Virus record (IMG/VR): IMGVR_UViG_3300025291_000005
Coordinates: 1-43,033 of that record
From: a virus
Length of the DNA stretch: 43,033 nucleotides
Strand: one strand, 5' to 3'
Under the pieces are notes generated by a model, which was not told where the DNA came from, made no database searches, and was given only the letters and a program-made list of their open reading frames with translations. Positions 20,960 through 27,029 of the stretch are shown piece by piece. The first letter of the stretch is position 1, and each line of letters starts with the position of its first letter. Position numbers and translations under genes: made by a program.

Positions 20960-21229
20960 TTAGTAACCGCCGTCTTTTGGGAAACTAGGTCTTTTCTTTT
21001 TAGGGACTTCTTGTTTGATTGGTGATTCTTTCATAACAATAGGCTCCTCTGTTATATTCGGCATATGAATACCAGCACTACCACCATTACTCGCAATATA
21101 ATAACGTATTGCATGTCGTACAGTTTCTGACTTTCTACTTCTTGGAATCTTTTTTAACCACTCATGAATATCTTTATCCAGCTGATCGTCATAACTTAGC
21201 TGATAAATTTTATTCGCCATCTTCTTCAC
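20960..21229 (-). CDS. ParR-like RHH centromere-binding adaptor
   Basis: 89 aa overlapping the 3' end of the ParM-like gene by 20 nt. It has an RSRKSETVRHAIRYYI RHH-like segment. Confidence 0.55.
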   Translation of the reverse strand: MKKMANKIYQLSYDDQLDKDIHEWLKKIPRSRKSETVRHAIRYYIASNGGSAGIHMPNITEEPIVMKESPIKQEVPKKKRPSFPKDGGY

Positions 21230-22220
21230 TCACTTTAAACATTCCATATTTGAAAAATCCTTCTGCGTTTGCTTGTTGTGGTTTCTCTGCTACCTTCACA
21301 CCACCAACTAAATCTTCAATAGCGCTTGCAAATAATTCTGCTCCGCCACCAGTAATGATAATTTCATCGAAACGGTCAAACGTTTTCCATGCGTTTTTAA
21401 TACCTTGTTTAATCTTTTCAGATACTTGGAATACAGCTTTCGGTTTAATTTCTTCAAAATCAATAATGTGACGTTCTGAAAGTTTATATTGCCCTGATTC
21501 AAAGAATGGTTCAACGTGGTAGTATTCCACTTTTGCATTAGAATTTTGAGAGTTGATGTAATCTGCTATTTCTTGATAAACATCTTTCATTCCAGCTTCA
21601 ACTGATTTAAACTCATTTTCACGACGTAGCCCAGTGATCGAGTCTAAATCTGTTGTTCCTGTTCCGATGTCAATTACTCCTACACGAATATCTTCGTAAC
21701 GCTCATCAGCTACAAATCCATCTGTATCTAAGTATTGGCCCATTACAGTTCCGATTGGTTGAGGTAAAATGATAACTTCCTCTACATTAACCTTTACTGT
21801 TTTCCCATCAACTTTTACTGTATGTAATCCCTCAAATACTGCTTTTAAATCATTTGCTGCTTCTGTTCCGATTTCATTACTAGGTACGCCTGTGATTACA
21901 ATTACTTCATCTGTCGGTTGTACTTTGCTTTTAAGAGCAAGATCAGCAAGAGCGATGCTTGTTAATACTTTGTATAAAGGTTCTTTGTATCTGTTTTGGA
22001 ATCCATAAGTTGCAAATACATCTTTTACTTTTGTGATGTCTTTCCCCCAAACATATTCGATACCTTCAATTTCATAAGTCTTTAATTTCGTCTTTTTACC
22101 TGTAATTGATTCTCCTACATCCTTTTTAAAAGCCACTAATGAAGGTAATACTCCAGATGCAACTTCACTTCTACCTTTAATGTTTCCGTTACCGTGGTCA
22201 ATTACTAATACTTTTTTCAT
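21210..22220 (-). CDS. parM: Actin-like plasmid segregation ATPase (ParM/StbA/Alp family)
   Basis: 336 aa from MKKVLVIDHGNGNIKG (phosphate 1). It also has DIGTGTTD (phosphate 2) and IIITGGGAELF (adenosine motif). The track start at 22286 is an unsupported extension. Confidence 0.85.
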   Translation of the reverse strand: MKKVLVIDHGNGNIKGRSEVASGVLPSLVAFKKDVGESITGKKTKLKTYEIEGIEYVWGKDITKVKDVFATYGFQNRYKEPLYKVLTSIALADLALKSKVQPTDEVIVITGVPSNEIGTEAANDLKAVFEGLHTVKVDGKTVKVNVEEVIILPQPIGTVMGQYLDTDGFVADERYEDIRVGVIDIGTGTTDLDSITGLRRENEFKSVEAGMKDVYQEIADYINSQNSNAKVEYYHVEPFFESGQYKLSERHIIDFEEIKPKAVFQVSEKIKQGIKNAWKTFDRFDEIIITGGGAELFASAIEDLVGGVKVAEKPQQANAEGFFKYGMFKVSEEDGE

Positions 22221-22274
22221 CAAATACACAACCTTTCTAGATTCATTGTATAAAACTTTATTATTTATAAATTG

Positions 22275-22302
22275 ATTATACAACAAGCGAACTGTTTTTC
22301 AA
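22275..22302 (-). promoter_or_regulatory. Sigma-A-type promoter for the parM operon (TTGAAA-16-TATAAT)
   Basis: The minus strand reads ttgaaaaacagttcgcttgttgtataat, about 50 nt upstream of the parM ATG. Confidence 0.55.
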
Positions 22303-22546
22303 TTAAAATATTAAAACTCTACACAATCATACTATTAAACTCTAGTTATTTTTATTCCTGATAATTTCACGAATCCATTTTCTTCGCAAAGGCTTCGCTA
22401 AATCAGTAATAATGCATATAGTGAGGCAGGGACGACGTAGGCTTGTCCTCCCTAAGATTCGTTAAAAATCCCTATAAACCGAAAAACATCTTTTTCACAA
22501 CAGATATGGTATGTGAAATTTCAATGTGGTTATCTTTCTAAATCGG

Positions 22547-23449
22547 TCATGATGCCAACCAATCATAGAAAGGTACTTTGCCTGTATATTTGTGTTCGGA
22601 TAAAGATTGTGCTATTAAACTACGATCAATTTTGTCTTCATGTAATTGCTTTTTCGCATTTTCTTTTATTCTACGAAGTTCCAAGTCTTCAATCTTATTC
22701 GCTAAAGCCGAAATTAAGTAATCCCTAAAGTTAGTAACCTTACCTTGGTTGTATTTATCCATTACTTTTCGTAAAACAGATTTAAAGCTTCGATCTGTTA
22801 ATTCATCTTTTGTAGCTTCACGAAGAGAGTTGATTATTAAATTTAATTCTTCCTCTGGTAGGGAAGGTGAAGAGAAGCTTCGCTTATCATCATCAATTTT
22901 CGCTATATCATTTATATATATATTGGTATTTTCTTTCTTGGTATTTTTTCTTTGGTTATTTATAATGTACTGACTTTCCGGATTCGGGATTTCCACATTC
23001 GGATTTTCAGTAAATGGTTTTTCGGAGCTCTCCGAACTTTCGGAAACCGTATCCTGGATTTCAGGAAGTGGTTCTCCGAACTCCACACGAAGTTGATATC
23101 CAAGTGAATATTGCTCTTGAATCGTTTCTTCTAATATTTCAGCCACATCTTCCTTTACTTGTCCGTAAATATAGATTTGTTCTTTATGCTTGCCCTTGTC
23201 CAAAACTTTCACACGAGCAACGTATCTATTATGTATTAACTCTGTAAGTGCATTGTAGTGTGCGTCACGTCCGTTTTTAGAACGGTTGATGATGTCAGGC
23301 ATAGTAATCTTCCAAGAACCTTCTCGGTGTGAACAGAATTGAATTAAAAGGTATTTCGCCATTCCTGTCAGTTTGCAATCGTCAAGTAAAGCGTTCTCTA
23401 CTACACTGTGTCCTCGTTTCCGAGCATGTTTGAAAATATCATTAGTCAT
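22547..23449 (-). CDS. Plasmid-type replication initiator (RepA_N-like winged-helix N-terminus)
   Basis: 300 aa. The N-terminus VVENALLDDCKLTGMAKYLLIQFCSH...NALTELIHNRYVARVKV follows the RepA_N pattern. The centre is low-complexity. Confidence 0.5.
   Translation of the reverse strand: MTNDIFKHARKRGHSVVENALLDDCKLTGMAKYLLIQFCSHREGSWKITMPDIINRSKNGRDAHYNALTELIHNRYVARVKVLDKGKHKEQIYIYGQVKEDVAEILEETIQEQYSLGYQLRVEFGEPLPEIQDTVSESSESSEKPFTENPNVEIPNPESQYIINNQRKNTKKENTNIYINDIAKIDDDKRSFSSPSLPEEELNLIINSLREATKDELTDRSFKSVLRKVMDKYNQGKVTNFRDYLISALANKIEDLELRRIKENAKKQLHEDKIDRSLIAQSLSEHKYTGKVPFYDWLAS
22976..23080. repeat. Cluster of TTCGGA/TCCGAA/TCCGGA hexamers inside the rep gene (iteron-like)
   Basis: At least 7 copies lie within 105 bp, including the near-palindrome ttcggagctctccgaactttcggaa. 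Confidence 0.4.
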
Positions 23450-23450
23450 A

Positions 23451-23509
23451 ACAAAAAATCCTCCATTTTCCTCCCCGGCTTAAAATTGGGTATAGGAAAG
23501 TAGAGGATT
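23451..23509 (-). terminator. Attenuator hairpin in the rep leader that also sequesters the rep RBS
   Basis: Minus-strand RNA has arms aauccucuacuuucc and ggaaaauggaggauu (15 bp, one mismatch and one wobble), then uuuugu and AUG. The GGAGGA RBS lies in the 3' arm. Confidence 0.5.
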
Positions 23510-23548
23510 TGTATTTACGTTTTTTTGAAGTTATGATACTATCAATAT

Positions 23549-23602
23549 AGATAGCAACAACTTAATAACGTAACTTACAAAACCTCTGCTTTCGGAGTTT
23601 TT
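23549..23602 (+). ncRNA. Predicted ~50-nt countertranscript antisense to the rep leader
   Basis: Plus-strand tttacg-17-tactat with an extended TG (23514-23542). The hairpin ctctg/cuuu/cggag is followed by uuuuu (23584-23602). Confidence 0.35.
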
Positions 23603-23746
23603 AGAATGGTGTCTTGGCGACCAACCTATCGACCATCTAAAAACTGAGCCGGGGGTTTTTTAATTTTATATAAAAGTAGTTGTTTAAAAATCTATGTATC
23701 TACCCTCAATCATAGCAGAAGATTGACGAAAAAAGAAGACAAAAAG

Positions 23747-23771
23747 AGAAGACACTCGAAATGAGTGTCTT
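23747..23771 (-). terminator. Terminator of the membrane-protein gene
   Basis: Perfect stem aagacactc/gagtgtctt overlapping the stop codon. The sequence downstream on the minus strand is T-rich. Confidence 0.65.
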
Positions 23772-24858
23772 ATTTTAATCCAAATTGCGCCTTATTTGTA
23801 AGCTTCCCACCTTGGAACATAAAGTTAGCATTTGCTCCTGATGTGCCTTGACCTTTCCACATATACATGACTGTGTAAAACTCTGTTCCTTTATCTCCAC
23901 TTTCAGATAAAACTTCCCCATCGCTACCAATGATTTCTTTTACTTGATCATATGTCATACCGTTTTCAATTCTGTCAAACTCATCTTTAGATATTGTTGG
24001 TTTCCCAGCGCTAGATCGTTTTTTGTTTTCTTCATCAGCTTTTTGTTTTTCTTCTTGAGCTTTTTTAACATTCGCAGCAACAATTTCATGTTCCTTTTCT
24101 ATGTAGTCAGGAACAGACATATTGTACTTCTGAGCCATTTTTTCAAAATGTTCCAATACATCCTTATCCTTTGAATCTTTAAGGTCAGTTGGTTCATAAG
24201 ACTGATATTTCACATTGTATTTGTTGTAAATCTCCATGTTTACATTACGACCATCATCCATTTTTAAAGCTGTTTCCTTTGGCTTTTCTTCTTTCTTAGG
24301 AGCTTTTTCAACTGATTTATTATCGTTTTGAGAAGTTTTTACATTAGTAGAAGCGGCTTTCTCTTCTTTCTTATCAAAAATCGCGCTAATTGTAGCAACA
24401 GCGATAAATAAATACACAGCGATTGCTACAACCATTTTCCATTTAGTATTAGATCGGAACCCAAGTATTTTATTGCGGAACTTTCTTTGAATTAGGTGTG
24501 TTTCAAGATTTGTGTTGTTTTTAATAAAACTCTCAATCTTTTTGCCGTCTTCTTTTGCTGTAAGTTCAAATGTTTTATTTATACCTTTGAATCTGAATAT
24601 AGATTTTATAGCAAAGTGATCAATTGTCACATTGTCATAGTCTGAAATTTGATGTGTAACTAAGCTAACAACATCATCAATACTTTTATCATAATCAAAA
24701 AGTTGAATGTGGTCTTTTGTGATAGTAGCATATCCTGATTTACTCTCTTCAAATCCAGCTCTGATGATGATAGGTGTATAATTTTGATATCTTCTAGCTA
24801 TCGCTTGTTTAGCAAGTTTATCATCACTAGGCTTTTTCTCGTTTTTATCTTCTGCCAT
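23770..24858 (-). CDS. Single-pass membrane protein: cytoplasmic PH-like domain, Lys/Glu-rich linker and extracellular DUF3862/BLIP-like domain
   Basis: 362 aa from MAEDKNEK after the RBS ggaggga. The TM segment is WKMVVAIAVYLFIAVATISAIF. The C-terminus is GMTYDQVKEIIGSDGEVLSESG...ANFMFQGGKLTNKAQFGL. Confidence 0.7.
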   Translation of the reverse strand: MAEDKNEKKPSDDKLAKQAIARRYQNYTPIIIRAGFEESKSGYATITKDHIQLFDYDKSIDDVVSLVTHQISDYDNVTIDHFAIKSIFRFKGINKTFELTAKEDGKKIESFIKNNTNLETHLIQRKFRNKILGFRSNTKWKMVVAIAVYLFIAVATISAIFDKKEEKAASTNVKTSQNDNKSVEKAPKKEEKPKETALKMDDGRNVNMEIYNKYNVKYQSYEPTDLKDSKDKDVLEHFEKMAQKYNMSVPDYIEKEHEIVAANVKKAQEEKQKADEENKKRSSAGKPTISKDEFDRIENGMTYDQVKEIIGSDGEVLSESGDKGTEFYTVMYMWKGQGTSGANANFMFQGGKLTNKAQFGLK

Positions 24859-25046
24859 TTTTAATTGTTCCCTCCAAAATGTAAGATTCTTAAACAAGCA
24901 TAACAAATTTAGTTACAACTATTTTGTCATATTGTGTCGAATAAATTAAAAAAAGAGAGCCTAAGCTCTCACTGTCAAATTTGGTAATATTATGTAAAAT
25001 TTTACCACTGGATATTGGAAAAGATTTCTTCTAAAATGAAATCAAA

Positions 25047-25898: not shown

Positions 25899-27029
25899 GT
25901 GCAAAAATTATTGAACAGTCTCAAAGGGGATTTATGTTTAGCAGGAATCACGAATAGTAAGTTAGCGTTATCTTGGGGAATATCTCCAAGCGGTGTATCT
26001 GATGTATTCAAAGGTAAAAGACAAATGCGGTTTTCGTATCTTTCTACATCATTAGCTTTGTTGAAAAAAGGGATTAAAACAGAAAGCGAATTCATTTCGA
26101 AATACGCTGAAGTTGCAAAACCTAAAAACAGAAGAGAAATTATGGAATATCTATCTTTACGTGGAGATTTTAACTCACTGAAGAAGATTGTAGAACAAGA
26201 AAAAGAATCAAAAACAGGTACAAATAAAGAATGGGCTAATGTCTATGATCTGATTTACAAAAGATATACTCAGAAAGTGGAGCTTCTTGAGTTCTATAAC
26301 TTGATGCGAGAGAAAAATAAGAAGACAAACACTTTAGAAATGAAAGTCTTGATTGATTTATTATTATGTCAACTCTTATATCAGACTGGAAATCATGAAT
26401 TAATATCAAACAAAATGGATGAAATCCAGTCAAATATTAAACTTATATCTAATAAATTTATCGAAAAAACATTTGATTTACGTTTAAAAGAAGCTGAAGC
26501 TGTTCTTCACTTAAGAAGAGGTAACATAGAAGAAGCTCGTAACAAATGCAATGAGATGCTAAGTGCATGTCAACTTAATCCTTACTATTTGTTACCTCAA
26601 GCGATTGCTTATTTTAAATTAGGTGAGTCTTATATATTTGAAGACTACGAGAAGTCTAAGAAGTATTTGCTCAAAGCTTATGAATCATTAGATGGTTTGG
26701 ATTTTGTAGGTATTAAAGAAAAAAGAGAAATGTACCAATACACTCTTTCTTTTTTGAAAATATATCACGCAAAAGAAATGGATACTTTGACAGAAATTCA
26801 TAAAGCTGAGTTAGCATTTTTAAAAATTAGACAAGGGTTTAAAAAAGAAGCTAAAAAACTATTAATGGAATTAAAAGACGAAAACGGGAAGTTGAGCGCT
26901 ATACAAACAGTATATTTAGCAATGGCATGTGATAGTGAATCTTTAATGAAAGAAGCTCTTGAAAGCCTATTGCAAAAAGGTGACATATTTTACTCTCAAT
27001 TGGCTAAAAGATACTTGGGCTATTCTTGA
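25899..27029 (+). CDS. aimR: AimR-like arbitrium receptor (RRNPP family, HTH plus TPR-like body)
   Basis: 376 aa with a GTG start 8 nt after aaggagga. It has an N-terminal HTH-like segment and an all-helical body. Its size and segment order recall phi3T/SPbeta AimR. A signal-peptide ORF follows. Confidence 0.7.
   Translation: MQKLLNSLKGDLCLAGITNSKLALSWGISPSGVSDVFKGKRQMRFSYLSTSLALLKKGIKTESEFISKYAEVAKPKNRREIMEYLSLRGDFNSLKKIVEQEKESKTGTNKEWANVYDLIYKRYTQKVELLEFYNLMREKNKKTNTLEMKVLIDLLLCQLLYQTGNHELISNKMDEIQSNIKLISNKFIEKTFDLRLKEAEAVLHLRRGNIEEARNKCNEMLSACQLNPYYLLPQAIAYFKLGESYIFEDYEKSKKYLLKAYESLDGLDFVGIKEKREMYQYTLSFLKIYHAKEMDTLTEIHKAELAFLKIRQGFKKEAKKLLMELKDENGKLSAIQTVYLAMACDSESLMKEALESLLQKGDIFYSQLAKRYLGYS

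Follow-up and report, generated by a model that had tools for sequence, protein, structure and literature searches.

A predicted antisense-RNA attenuator in the conserved rep leader of a tailed phage-plasmid and its Bacillus relatives

Antisense RNA acting on the leader of a replication gene is a well-known type of plasmid control, and the present study concerns a candidate of this type in virus DNA. The window, by which we mean the whole stretch of 43,033 nucleotides analysed here (IMG/VR virus record IMGVR_UViG_3300025291_000005), carries on its minus strand a replication gene, rep, with an untranslated leader whose predicted helices and predicted antisense RNA (countertranscript) recall several described systems. 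In the repC leader of pT181, with its countertranscripts RNAI and RNAII (Novick et al. 1989, via PMC5703833), the rep leader is likewise untranslated and the countertranscript promoter lies inside it. A terminator-like stem-loop that contains the ribosome-binding site (RBS) stands just 5' of the start codon, and a pre-emptor pairs with its 5' arm unless bound by countertranscript. The two leaders nevertheless have no sequence or Rfam similarity, and pT181, a small plasmid, replicates as a rolling circle through a Rep_trans initiator, whereas the present host is a 43-kb tailed phage-plasmid with a winged-helix-type Rep whose related Reps are RepA_N, HTH_36 or DnaD-like. Unlike that of pT181, the present leader has a second clamp, A:A', that reaches into the terminator loop, and its predicted antisense RNA consists of a tail and one long hairpin, the base of which is formed by the complements of both clamps.

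The repR leader of the Inc18 plasmids pIP501 and pAMbeta1, with RNAIII and CopR (PMC5703833, PMC4981023), resembles the present one in its length (~320 nt there), in an antisense promoter placed midway so that the two promoters converge, and in inverted repeats plus a poly-T just 5' of rep, and its antisense RNA induces attenuation, as we predict here. The present leader differs in having no conserved Cop repressor gene; the upstream gene in the window encodes a lipoprotein, and an adjacent helix-turn-helix (HTH) gene is found only in some relatives (L005-L007 of the related leader-bearing loci, which are numbered from L001 and for which 27 records were fetched). The Rep family also differs and there is no sequence similarity. 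The staphylococcal RepA_N plasmids pSK41 and pSK1, with RNAI (Kwong et al. 2004, 2006, 2008; PMC5703833), offer a third likeness: an antisense RNA complementary to the leader ~100 nt upstream of the translation start, an induced stem-loop that sequesters the RBS, and a control region that may stand, as in the case of pPR9, ahead of initiators whose N-terminal domains differ. RepA_N genes follow some of the present leaders. The differences are the U-run behind the present hairpin and the lack of a RepA_N match in the Rep of the window. RNAII of pMV158 (PMC4485353, PMC5703833) shares with our predicted RNA a single-stranded 5' tail followed by one terminator hairpin, but is 48 nt long and acts directly at the repB translation initiation region, with no distant pre-emptor/terminator switch.

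The whole window gave no Rfam match at the gathering threshold, and with E <= 10 the segment 23400-23800 returned only chance-level miRNA and snoRNA families. Since there is no Rfam match, the Rep families differ and no Cop repressor is conserved, we take the leader, on comparison of sequences, to be an undescribed and sequence-unrelated family of a well-known control type, and not a member of the pT181 or pIP501/pAMbeta1 families nor, judging by the Rep of the window, of the pSK41 family. It is set apart by a second clamp that reaches into the loop of the terminator, by a predicted antisense terminator stem to which the complements of both clamps contribute, and by its occurrence ahead of several unrelated initiators on phages and plasmids. 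An earlier note on this DNA, made without database searches, had likened the arrangement to pT181, pIP501 and the RepA_N plasmids; the logic fits, although by Pfam the Rep of the window is not RepA_N, as the Reps of some relatives are. The same note knew of no such report in a tailed phage. The literature searched does not contradict this; the element is also found on ordinary plasmids. No description of antisense control in plasmids or plasmid prophages of the B. cereus group came to light in full-text searches, and the genome papers on related phage-plasmids make no mention of antisense RNA.

The question matters because phage-plasmids need a stable low copy number during lysogeny. Published genomes of the many B. 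cereus-group phage-plasmids, such as phiS58, BMBtp3, B83 and TP21-T, name only a 'replication initiator' and ParM, and leave replication control unmentioned. In this study, we examine the helices of the rep leader, their conservation and covariation, the promoter motifs on both strands and the switch between two folds, all of which are observed in silico, and we then weigh what they would mean for copy-number control.

Paired segments of the rep leader and the predicted fold switch

Leader coordinates are read on the minus strand, which is the sense of the rep mRNA. The features on which the argument depends are as follows.

22547-23449, minus strand: rep, the regulated gene, 300 amino acids, in the same place as annotated replication proteins in related records
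23709-23717, minus strand: rep promoter of the extended -10 type, TGCTATGAT, predicted from the conserved TGnTAnnAT
23450-23702, minus strand: untranslated rep leader of ~250 nt, from that promoter (23717-23709) to the AUG at 23449
23646-23661, minus strand: segment A, AAAAAACCCCCGGCU; 23654-23647 pairs with A' in the 'on' fold
23596-23645, minus strand: stem-loop I, a long hairpin with a large apical loop, from RNAalifold
23567-23593, minus strand: segment B, the pre-emptor and 5' strand of the antiterminator, GAAAGCAGAGGUUUUGUAAGUUACGUU, paired in the minimum-free-energy (MFE) fold
23531-23560, minus strand: stem-loop II, whose 3' arm is the complement of the antisense -10 box
23496-23521, minus strand: segment B', the 3' strand of the antiterminator, overlapping the terminator 5' arm
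23456-23510, minus strand: terminator and RBS-sequestering hairpin (the 'off' fold), arms 23509-23495 (AAUCCUCUACUUUCC) and 23471-23457 (GGAAAAUGGAGGAUU)
23453-23458, minus strand: U6 tract, both terminator tail and spacer between the Shine-Dalgarno sequence (SD) and the AUG, followed by GUU and the AUG at 23449

Three helices of the region had been pointed out in the earlier note. The terminator hairpin that it described, 23509-23495 with 23471-23457, was borne out: its arms pair at 14 of 15 positions (13 Watson-Crick pairs and one G.U, with one C.A mismatch), the U6, GUU and AUG follow, and the SD, GGAGGA (23464-23459), lies within the 3' arm. An apical helix of CCC (23490-88) with GGG (23476-74) shrinks the loop to 11 nt. 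Folded by itself (23513-23447), the hairpin reaches -22.5 kcal/mol with z = -4.2, and none of 200 shuffles was as good. Behind it, 5-7 U are found in 73 of 74 leaders, 0-5 nt short of the ATG, and four U columns are invariant. The antiterminator first seen as 23593-23583 with 23506-23496 indeed pairs at 10 of its 11 positions, and forms one end, the outer, of a longer, interrupted helix of 27 nt (23593-23567 with 23521-23496) that is present in the MFE fold. The core common to B' and the terminator 5' arm, AUCCUCUA, is nearly invariant, as is to be expected because this sequence must pair with two partners. The nested loop helix, or A:A' clamp, joins 23654-23647 (CCCCGGCU) to A' at 23480-23473 (AGCCGGGG), which is located in the terminator loop; its 8 pairs are perfect, it encloses the antiterminator, and it too was recovered in the MFE. 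The leader as a whole (23700-23440) folds to an MFE of -69.8 kcal/mol, with z = -5.95 and 0 of 200 shuffles as good.

Conservation was measured in alignment A1, which holds 28 leaders. At the rep promoter the invariant columns G1, T3, A4, A7 and T8 read (T)GnTAnnAT, and the variants elsewhere all fit TAnnAT; the transcript is predicted, from the position of this motif, to start near 23702-23700. A conserved leader peptide was looked for between the rep promoter and the AUG, and no conserved open reading frame (ORF) was found there. An 11-codon ORF within stem-loop I was rejected as a leader peptide, being restricted to the window, not conserved and without an SD.

Because MAFFT misplaces indels near several helices, pairs were counted on structures named beforehand in gapless alignments anchored on invariant cores. 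The resulting values are given for each helix as cells paired, pairs with compensatory change, and covariation score with the mean of shuffled alignments in brackets.

A:A' clamp: 82% of cells paired; 5 compensatory pairs; score 0.199 (0.113)
Antiterminator: 92.5% of cells paired; 5 compensatory pairs; score 0.387 (0.112)
Terminator: 88% of cells paired; 6 compensatory pairs; score 0.179 (0.098)

For each of the three, the score was reached by 0 of 500 shuffles, and slid controls were all clearly worse. Both the antiterminator helix and the terminator hairpin are present in 28 of 28 sequences. RNAalifold on A1 recovered stem-loop I and the inner antiterminator; 8 of the 11 pairs of stem-loop I show compensatory changes, in 2-13 sequences. 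A stricter partner-swap test was made on 14 representatives, one per 90%-identity cluster, with 5000 permutations, and of these 0 were as good for the variable part of A:A' and 5 for the inner antiterminator. Compensatory changes in the aligned sequences give strong support to the A:A' clamp, stem-loop I and the inner antiterminator as RNA structures. To the terminator hairpin these comparative tests lend moderate support, since its core does not vary. The terminator also keeps one U.G pair, invariant in 16 of 17 distinct rows, that on the opposite strand would become a C.A mismatch. RNAalifold also proposed that AAAAA.CC.C pair with the SD and U-run in place of A:A'; this was set aside, all its columns being invariant as against the compensatory changes of A:A', and it is a possible minor alternative fold, seen in the MFE of L021.

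The two predicted forms of the leader exchange in silico when the antisense target is taken away. Twelve representative leaders were folded with ViennaRNA, either free or with the stretch complementary to the antisense RNA barred from pairing. In the free leader the MFE was the antiterminator form in 10 of the 12. With the target blocked, the MFE held the terminator hairpin in all 12, usually with the CCC:GGG apical extension. The central claim of the earlier note, that terminator and antiterminator are mutually exclusive and are joined by a countertranscript, is thus supported by 70-odd relatives, by promoter motifs in 74 of 74 leaders and by the change of predicted fold in 12 of 12.

The predicted antisense promoter and countertranscript

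On the plus strand the leader contains the following.

23514-23542, plus strand: predicted antisense promoter, with -35 TTTACG at 23514-19, a 17-nt spacer, TG at 23534-35 and -10 TACTAT at 23537-42
23549-23668, plus strand: predicted countertranscript of ~113-120 nt, with both ends placed by prediction
23584-23602, plus strand: compact terminator of a 5-bp stem and TTTTT, listed by the generic scan

The promoter has the elements that the earlier note gave it, and it becomes convincing through the relatives rather than through the window. On the window sequence alone it does not exceed chance, with a score of 8/12; the threshold of the generic promoter scan is 9/12, and the antisense and rep promoters both fall below it, so that neither was listed. 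Across the family, in contrast, each of the 74 distinct leaders has TGnTAnnAT, correctly spaced from the G-run/U-run that lies downstream. The A1 columns that are invariant in the 3' arm of stem-loop II correspond to plus-strand T23534, G23535, T23537, A23538, A23541 and T23542, while the 'n' positions vary; the T, A and C of the -35 are also invariant. The -10 box takes the forms TGATACTAT, TGCTATCAT, TGATAATAT and TGCTACTAT, with TTTACG, TTCACA or TAGACG as the -35 at 17 nt upstream, and in L015 and L019, which have a 6-nt deletion in the spacer, a new hexamer, TTGTTA, is offered at the 17-nt spacing. Because the invariance hits TGnTAnnAT exactly, and because the rep promoter has the same signature, the pattern points to selection on a promoter and not on RNA pairing.

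The countertranscript is predicted to fold into a ~30-nt single-stranded 5' tail and one long hairpin, followed by U6 and AAUUUU. The base of the hairpin joins 23579-23588 (AAAACCUCUG, the complement of B) to 23650-23659 (CGGGGGUUUU, the complement of A) and encloses the mirror of stem-loop I, so that the complement of segment A supplies the 3' half of the antisense terminator stem together with its U-run. The 120-nt RNA 23549-23668 folds to -29.7 kcal/mol (z = -2.8). All 17 representatives folded share the tail, the single hairpin and the U-run; their RNAs are predicted to measure 101-136 nt, and over 74 leaders the predicted length has its mode at ~109-113 nt. Pairing of the base helix reaches 86% on the plus strand, as against 73.6% in the sense RNA, where an invariant U.G becomes C.A. 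The A6 run that precedes the C-run is invariant; it encodes the antisense U-run, and no role for it is evident in the sense RNA. RNAalifold applied to the MAFFT alignment of this plus-strand region returned no structure, the alignment being misregistered across indels, and the region was then examined by folds of single sequences and by anchored gapless alignments. From these folds and alignments, the 3' end is more likely to lie near 23661-23668, which would make the RNA complementary to B, stem-loop I and A.

The earlier note had instead ended an RNA of ~50 nt at the compact terminator. That proposal is the weak part of the note: the hairpin 23584-23597 is present but, with z = +0.54, folds no better than shuffles, and it is missing from the MFE of the longer RNA; among the relatives, the close ones L001 and L004 have the terminator disrupted and distant members lack it. 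The compact terminator is probably not functional, and a length of ~113-120 nt is more probable. The complementarity to the antiterminator segment stands insofar as the RNA covers B; it also extends to stem-loop I and A, and is not confined to B.

Proposed control of rep and rival explanations

We think it probable, from the sequence comparisons, that the leader controls copy number while the prophage exists as a plasmid, and that it does so as a cassette acting through countertranscript-driven attenuation. In the proposed scheme, rep would be transcribed from the extended -10 promoter at 23717-23709 with a ~250-nt leader. Segment B would be made ~50-70 nt ahead of B', and without interference B would capture B' and A would capture A'. 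In this 'on' form the terminator 5' arm and loop would be occupied, transcription would read through and the SD would be free. A constitutive, convergent antisense RNA of ~115 nt, started from 23514-23542 and complementary to A, stem-loop I and B, would counter this. The first contact would probably be loop to loop, between stem-loop I and its mirror in the antisense RNA, or by way of the antisense 5' tail; stem-loop I is the likely site, in a kissing role. Antisense pairing would free B' and A', whereupon B' would pair with 23472-23456, and CCC at 23490-88 with GGG at 23476-74. The resulting 19-bp hairpin with its U6 would halt transcription 3-8 nt before the AUG, and in RNA that is read through the SD would be hidden. 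The level of antisense RNA would follow gene dosage, and Rep synthesis would drop as copy number climbs.

Several observations weigh against this scheme. In L017 and L021 the MFE of the free leader is not the antiterminator form, and therefore kinetic, co-transcriptional folding would matter. The two RNAs, with their ends and their abundance, are predictions made from sequence. By the partner-swap test neither the outer antiterminator extension that the earlier note had named, GAAAG:CUUUC (1166 of 5000 permutations as good), nor the distal terminator (816 of 5000) was significant, both segments being generic U-rich and A-rich stretches, and the invariant core of the terminator is outside the reach of covariation. 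The base helix of the antisense terminator is almost without covariation, its score being reached by 94 of 500 shuffles, so that what favours it in the alignments is conservation and strand asymmetry. The generic terminator scan missed the hairpin of the rep leader, which has an 11-nt loop and two imperfections. In pSK41, moreover, the induced stem-loop sequesters the RBS without attenuating transcription (PMC5703833).

This last precedent leads to a reading in which the antisense RNA and the switch are the same and the hairpin does nothing but hide the RBS, as in pSK41, the U-run being an AT-rich spacer between SD and AUG. The position of GGAGGA in the 3' arm suits such translational control, as do a loop that is long for an intrinsic terminator and was overlooked by the generic scan, and the RepA_N Reps, like that of pSK41, in some members of the family. 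We hold it unlikely all the same, for the U-run stands right behind the stem in all but one of the 74 leaders with four of its columns invariant, the stem is preceded, like that of a typical intrinsic terminator, by an A-rich stretch, and the hairpin is stable. In pT181 (PMC5703833) the equivalent hairpin likewise contains the RBS, but termination is its main mode of action. It is this parallel, together with the 5-7 U in 73 of 74 leaders, that makes a hairpin which would both terminate transcription and occlude the SD more likely than one that occludes alone.

Two further readings dispense with the antisense RNA. One supposes a cis-acting switch that is set by Rep, another protein or a small ligand bound at stem-loop I, the plus-strand promoter being silent or otherwise used. 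The apical part of stem-loop I does carry a conserved motif, GGUUGGUCGCC with variants, that has no assigned role; the antisense transcript is a prediction and not an observation, and the promoter of the window by itself scores just 8/12. Yet invariance falls exactly on TG, TA, AT and the T, A and C of the -35, at 17-nt spacing and in every one of the 74 leaders, a replacement -35 is found where a deletion has shifted the spacing, and the invariant A6 run, for which the sense RNA offers no evident role, encodes the antisense U-run. The Reps are also too diverse for one RNA-binding specificity, and Rfam gives no riboswitch match; we judge such a switch improbable. In the other, which we find very hard to credit, the conservation reflects an element in the DNA itself, such as an origin, a single-strand initiation site or an array of protein-binding sites. 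The region does adjoin rep, and a perfect DnaA box pair stands just upstream in 27 of 77 related loci, but the window has no such box. Against a DNA element stand compensatory changes that keep pairing and an invariant terminator U.G that is C.A on the other strand and so marks a strand-specific structure; the element moreover sits between a promoter and the SD and AUG, and sequesters that same SD. Beyond one 2-copy family, a scan of rep and the rep-parM spacer, which did not include the leader itself, found no iterons or direct repeats.

Were attenuation by the countertranscript confirmed, the conserved antisense attenuator would be the missing replication-control element of the B. cereus-group phage-plasmids, and would explain compatibility and incompatibility among related 40-55 kb elements that often share one strain. 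It would also contradict the impression that RNA-mediated rep control is lacking in non-staphylococcal RepA_N replicons: pSK41-like RNA control is described as apparently absent from RepA_N plasmids of other genera (PMC5703833), and the RepA_N members of the present leader family would be counter-examples to that statement. The leader would also supply a defined family of ~270 nt for RNA databases and for the annotation of plasmids and phages in the group to which B. anthracis, B. cereus and B. thuringiensis belong. As textbook plasmid biology, the mechanism should surprise a specialist only moderately; what is notable lies mainly in its tailed phage-plasmid setting and its modularity.

Distribution, modularity and genomic setting

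By blastn, the ~330 bp between the upstream terminator and the start codon of rep recur at 68-94% identity in many B. cereus-group phages, among them vB_BtS_BMBtp3, phiS58, Waukesha92, TP21-T, BMBtp14, B83 and CUBc25, and in ~11 of 44 matching phage records the leader stands directly before the rep start. The plasmid collection yielded 73 records, all from Bacillus, and in 60 of these the match spans at least 80% of the leader. Hosts range from 40-55 kb phage-plasmids through 60-115 kb plasmids without phage genes to the 7.8-kb plasmid pMC8. In IMG/VR, 64 contigs match the terminator pattern, of which 52 have the leader by nhmmer and 50 have it at full length. A collection with one genome per species contained the leader in 7 genomes, all Bacillus; 69 further pattern matches there came from unrelated taxa, with ~66 expected by chance, and were removed by nhmmer.

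Wherever the downstream gene is annotated or could be read in the 27 fetched records, it is of a replication type and its start codon marks the end of the leader. The downstream Reps form at least 4 sequence clusters and are variously RepA_N (PF06970), HTH_36/DnaD_N or DnaB_2, several being without a Pfam match. RepA_N Reps are encoded by L008 and L021, and the same Rep cluster includes L011 and L027. The Rep of the window has no Pfam or NCBIfam match, and hence none to RepA_N (PF06970); it is 74-94% identical to the Reps of L002, L009, L014 and L016, and its N-terminus is 32-35% identical to the HTH_36/DnaD_N Reps of L017 and L020. The leader of L001 is 91% identical to that of the window, whereas its Rep has no detectable similarity to the window Rep. 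Leader similarity ends at the ATG and resumes past the rep stop codon: relative to L001, L003 and L004, window positions 22407-22550 (~140 bp toward parM) and 23443-23775 are 84-91% identical and the rep ORF is unrelated. It is because similarity stops and resumes at these points that rep ORFs appear, from the aligned sequences, to have been swapped as a cassette between conserved flanks. The leader cassette is, as far as these records go, independent of any one Rep family, and since it is common to ordinary plasmids it is not phage-specific.

A wider proposal, which we advance as a doubtful though possible one, is that the leader and the antisense gene form an initiator-independent control and incompatibility cassette. 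It would be exchanged between tailed phage-plasmids and ordinary plasmids of the B. cereus group and joined exactly at the start codon to unrelated initiators, with a trans-acting RNA that shuts off the rep of an incoming relative and, in some lineages, assistance from a phage-encoded Hfq. Because the antisense RNA would act in trans, a resident prophage-plasmid would shut off an incoming cognate rep, and an RNA-based layer of exclusion or incompatibility would exist between phages and plasmids.

Related leaders coexist within single strains: L004 with L006 in B. mycoides BPN401 (pl50 and pl41), L007 with L022 in B. thuringiensis QZL38 (p.6 and p.3), and L017 with the B83-like plasmid CP020004 in strain L-7601. 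Coexisting leaders differ mainly in segment A and in apical stem-loop I, and on such comparisons these two may be the determinants of specificity (incompatibility). An Hfq-family gene adjoins the leader in 8 of ~78 loci (L020, L022, L023, L030, L040, L041, L051 and L058), for example at 1186-1446 on the minus strand of L020, with 86 aa, and at 506-754 of L030; it is divergent in the annotated plasmid loci L020, L022 and L023. The Hfq-bearing loci span at least 2 leader lineages, including the leader cluster of the window (L030), and the window itself has no Hfq gene. The adjacent Hfq speaks in favour of the proposed control of rep, for which it may be a dedicated RNA chaperone.

Of 77 loci, 27 have perfect DnaA boxes (TGTGGATAA and/or TTATCCACA) at ~60-120 nt ahead of the leader, just before the terminator that comes first, and in 22 of the 27 the boxes form an inverted pair; the 27 loci include L008, L010, L013, L015, L017, L019 and L025. 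No DnaA box occurs anywhere in the window. In L010 (pBMB165, prophage BMBtp3), the rep at 1845-2942 appears broken, with an early in-frame stop relative to its phiS58 homolog in L011 and two short ORFs, which fits the published proposal that BMBtp3 relies on the pXO2-like replicon of pBMB165 (PMC3847046). The Bacillus-type rep coding region is matched at 68-73% by OR599646.1, labelled Pectobacterium phage PcaP2EGY, and by NZ_KP738729.1, an Aeromonas sp. plasmid; both host labels are odd for Bacillus-like DNA.

The genes around the leader define its setting. On the plus strand, the 43-kb window encodes a terminase large subunit, portal, major head protein, tape measure, endolysin, DnaB-like helicase and DNA methyltransferase, and on the minus strand it has a plasmid-maintenance block of an actin-like ParM and rep. 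Because phage genes and the ParM/rep block occur together, the window is, by its gene content, taken to be a tailed phage able to live as a plasmid. DNA-level likeness to known B. cereus-group records is confined to its maintenance module. The neighbouring features are these.

21210-22286, minus strand: ParM (ALP_N, E = 1e-22)
23749-23771, both strands: bidirectional intrinsic terminator with a 9-10 bp stem, from the generic scan
23770-24906, minus strand: DUF3862 lipoprotein gene upstream of rep, whose ORF ends in the terminator 23749-23771

The terminator at 23749-23771 is predicted to end the DUF3862 lipoprotein gene and to shield the rep promoter from upstream transcription. The C-terminal part of this DUF3862/BLIP-like gene (23770-24906) has ~71% nucleotide identity to lipoprotein genes of Paenibacillus larvae phages and ~67% to large Bacillus phages such as Tsamsa and Izhevsk. 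Farther along, on the plus strand at 25899-27029, lies a 376-aa regulator with a full-length match to phrog_1728 (E = 3e-127), in the place where the related records L008, L024 and L027 annotate an AimR arbitrium receptor.

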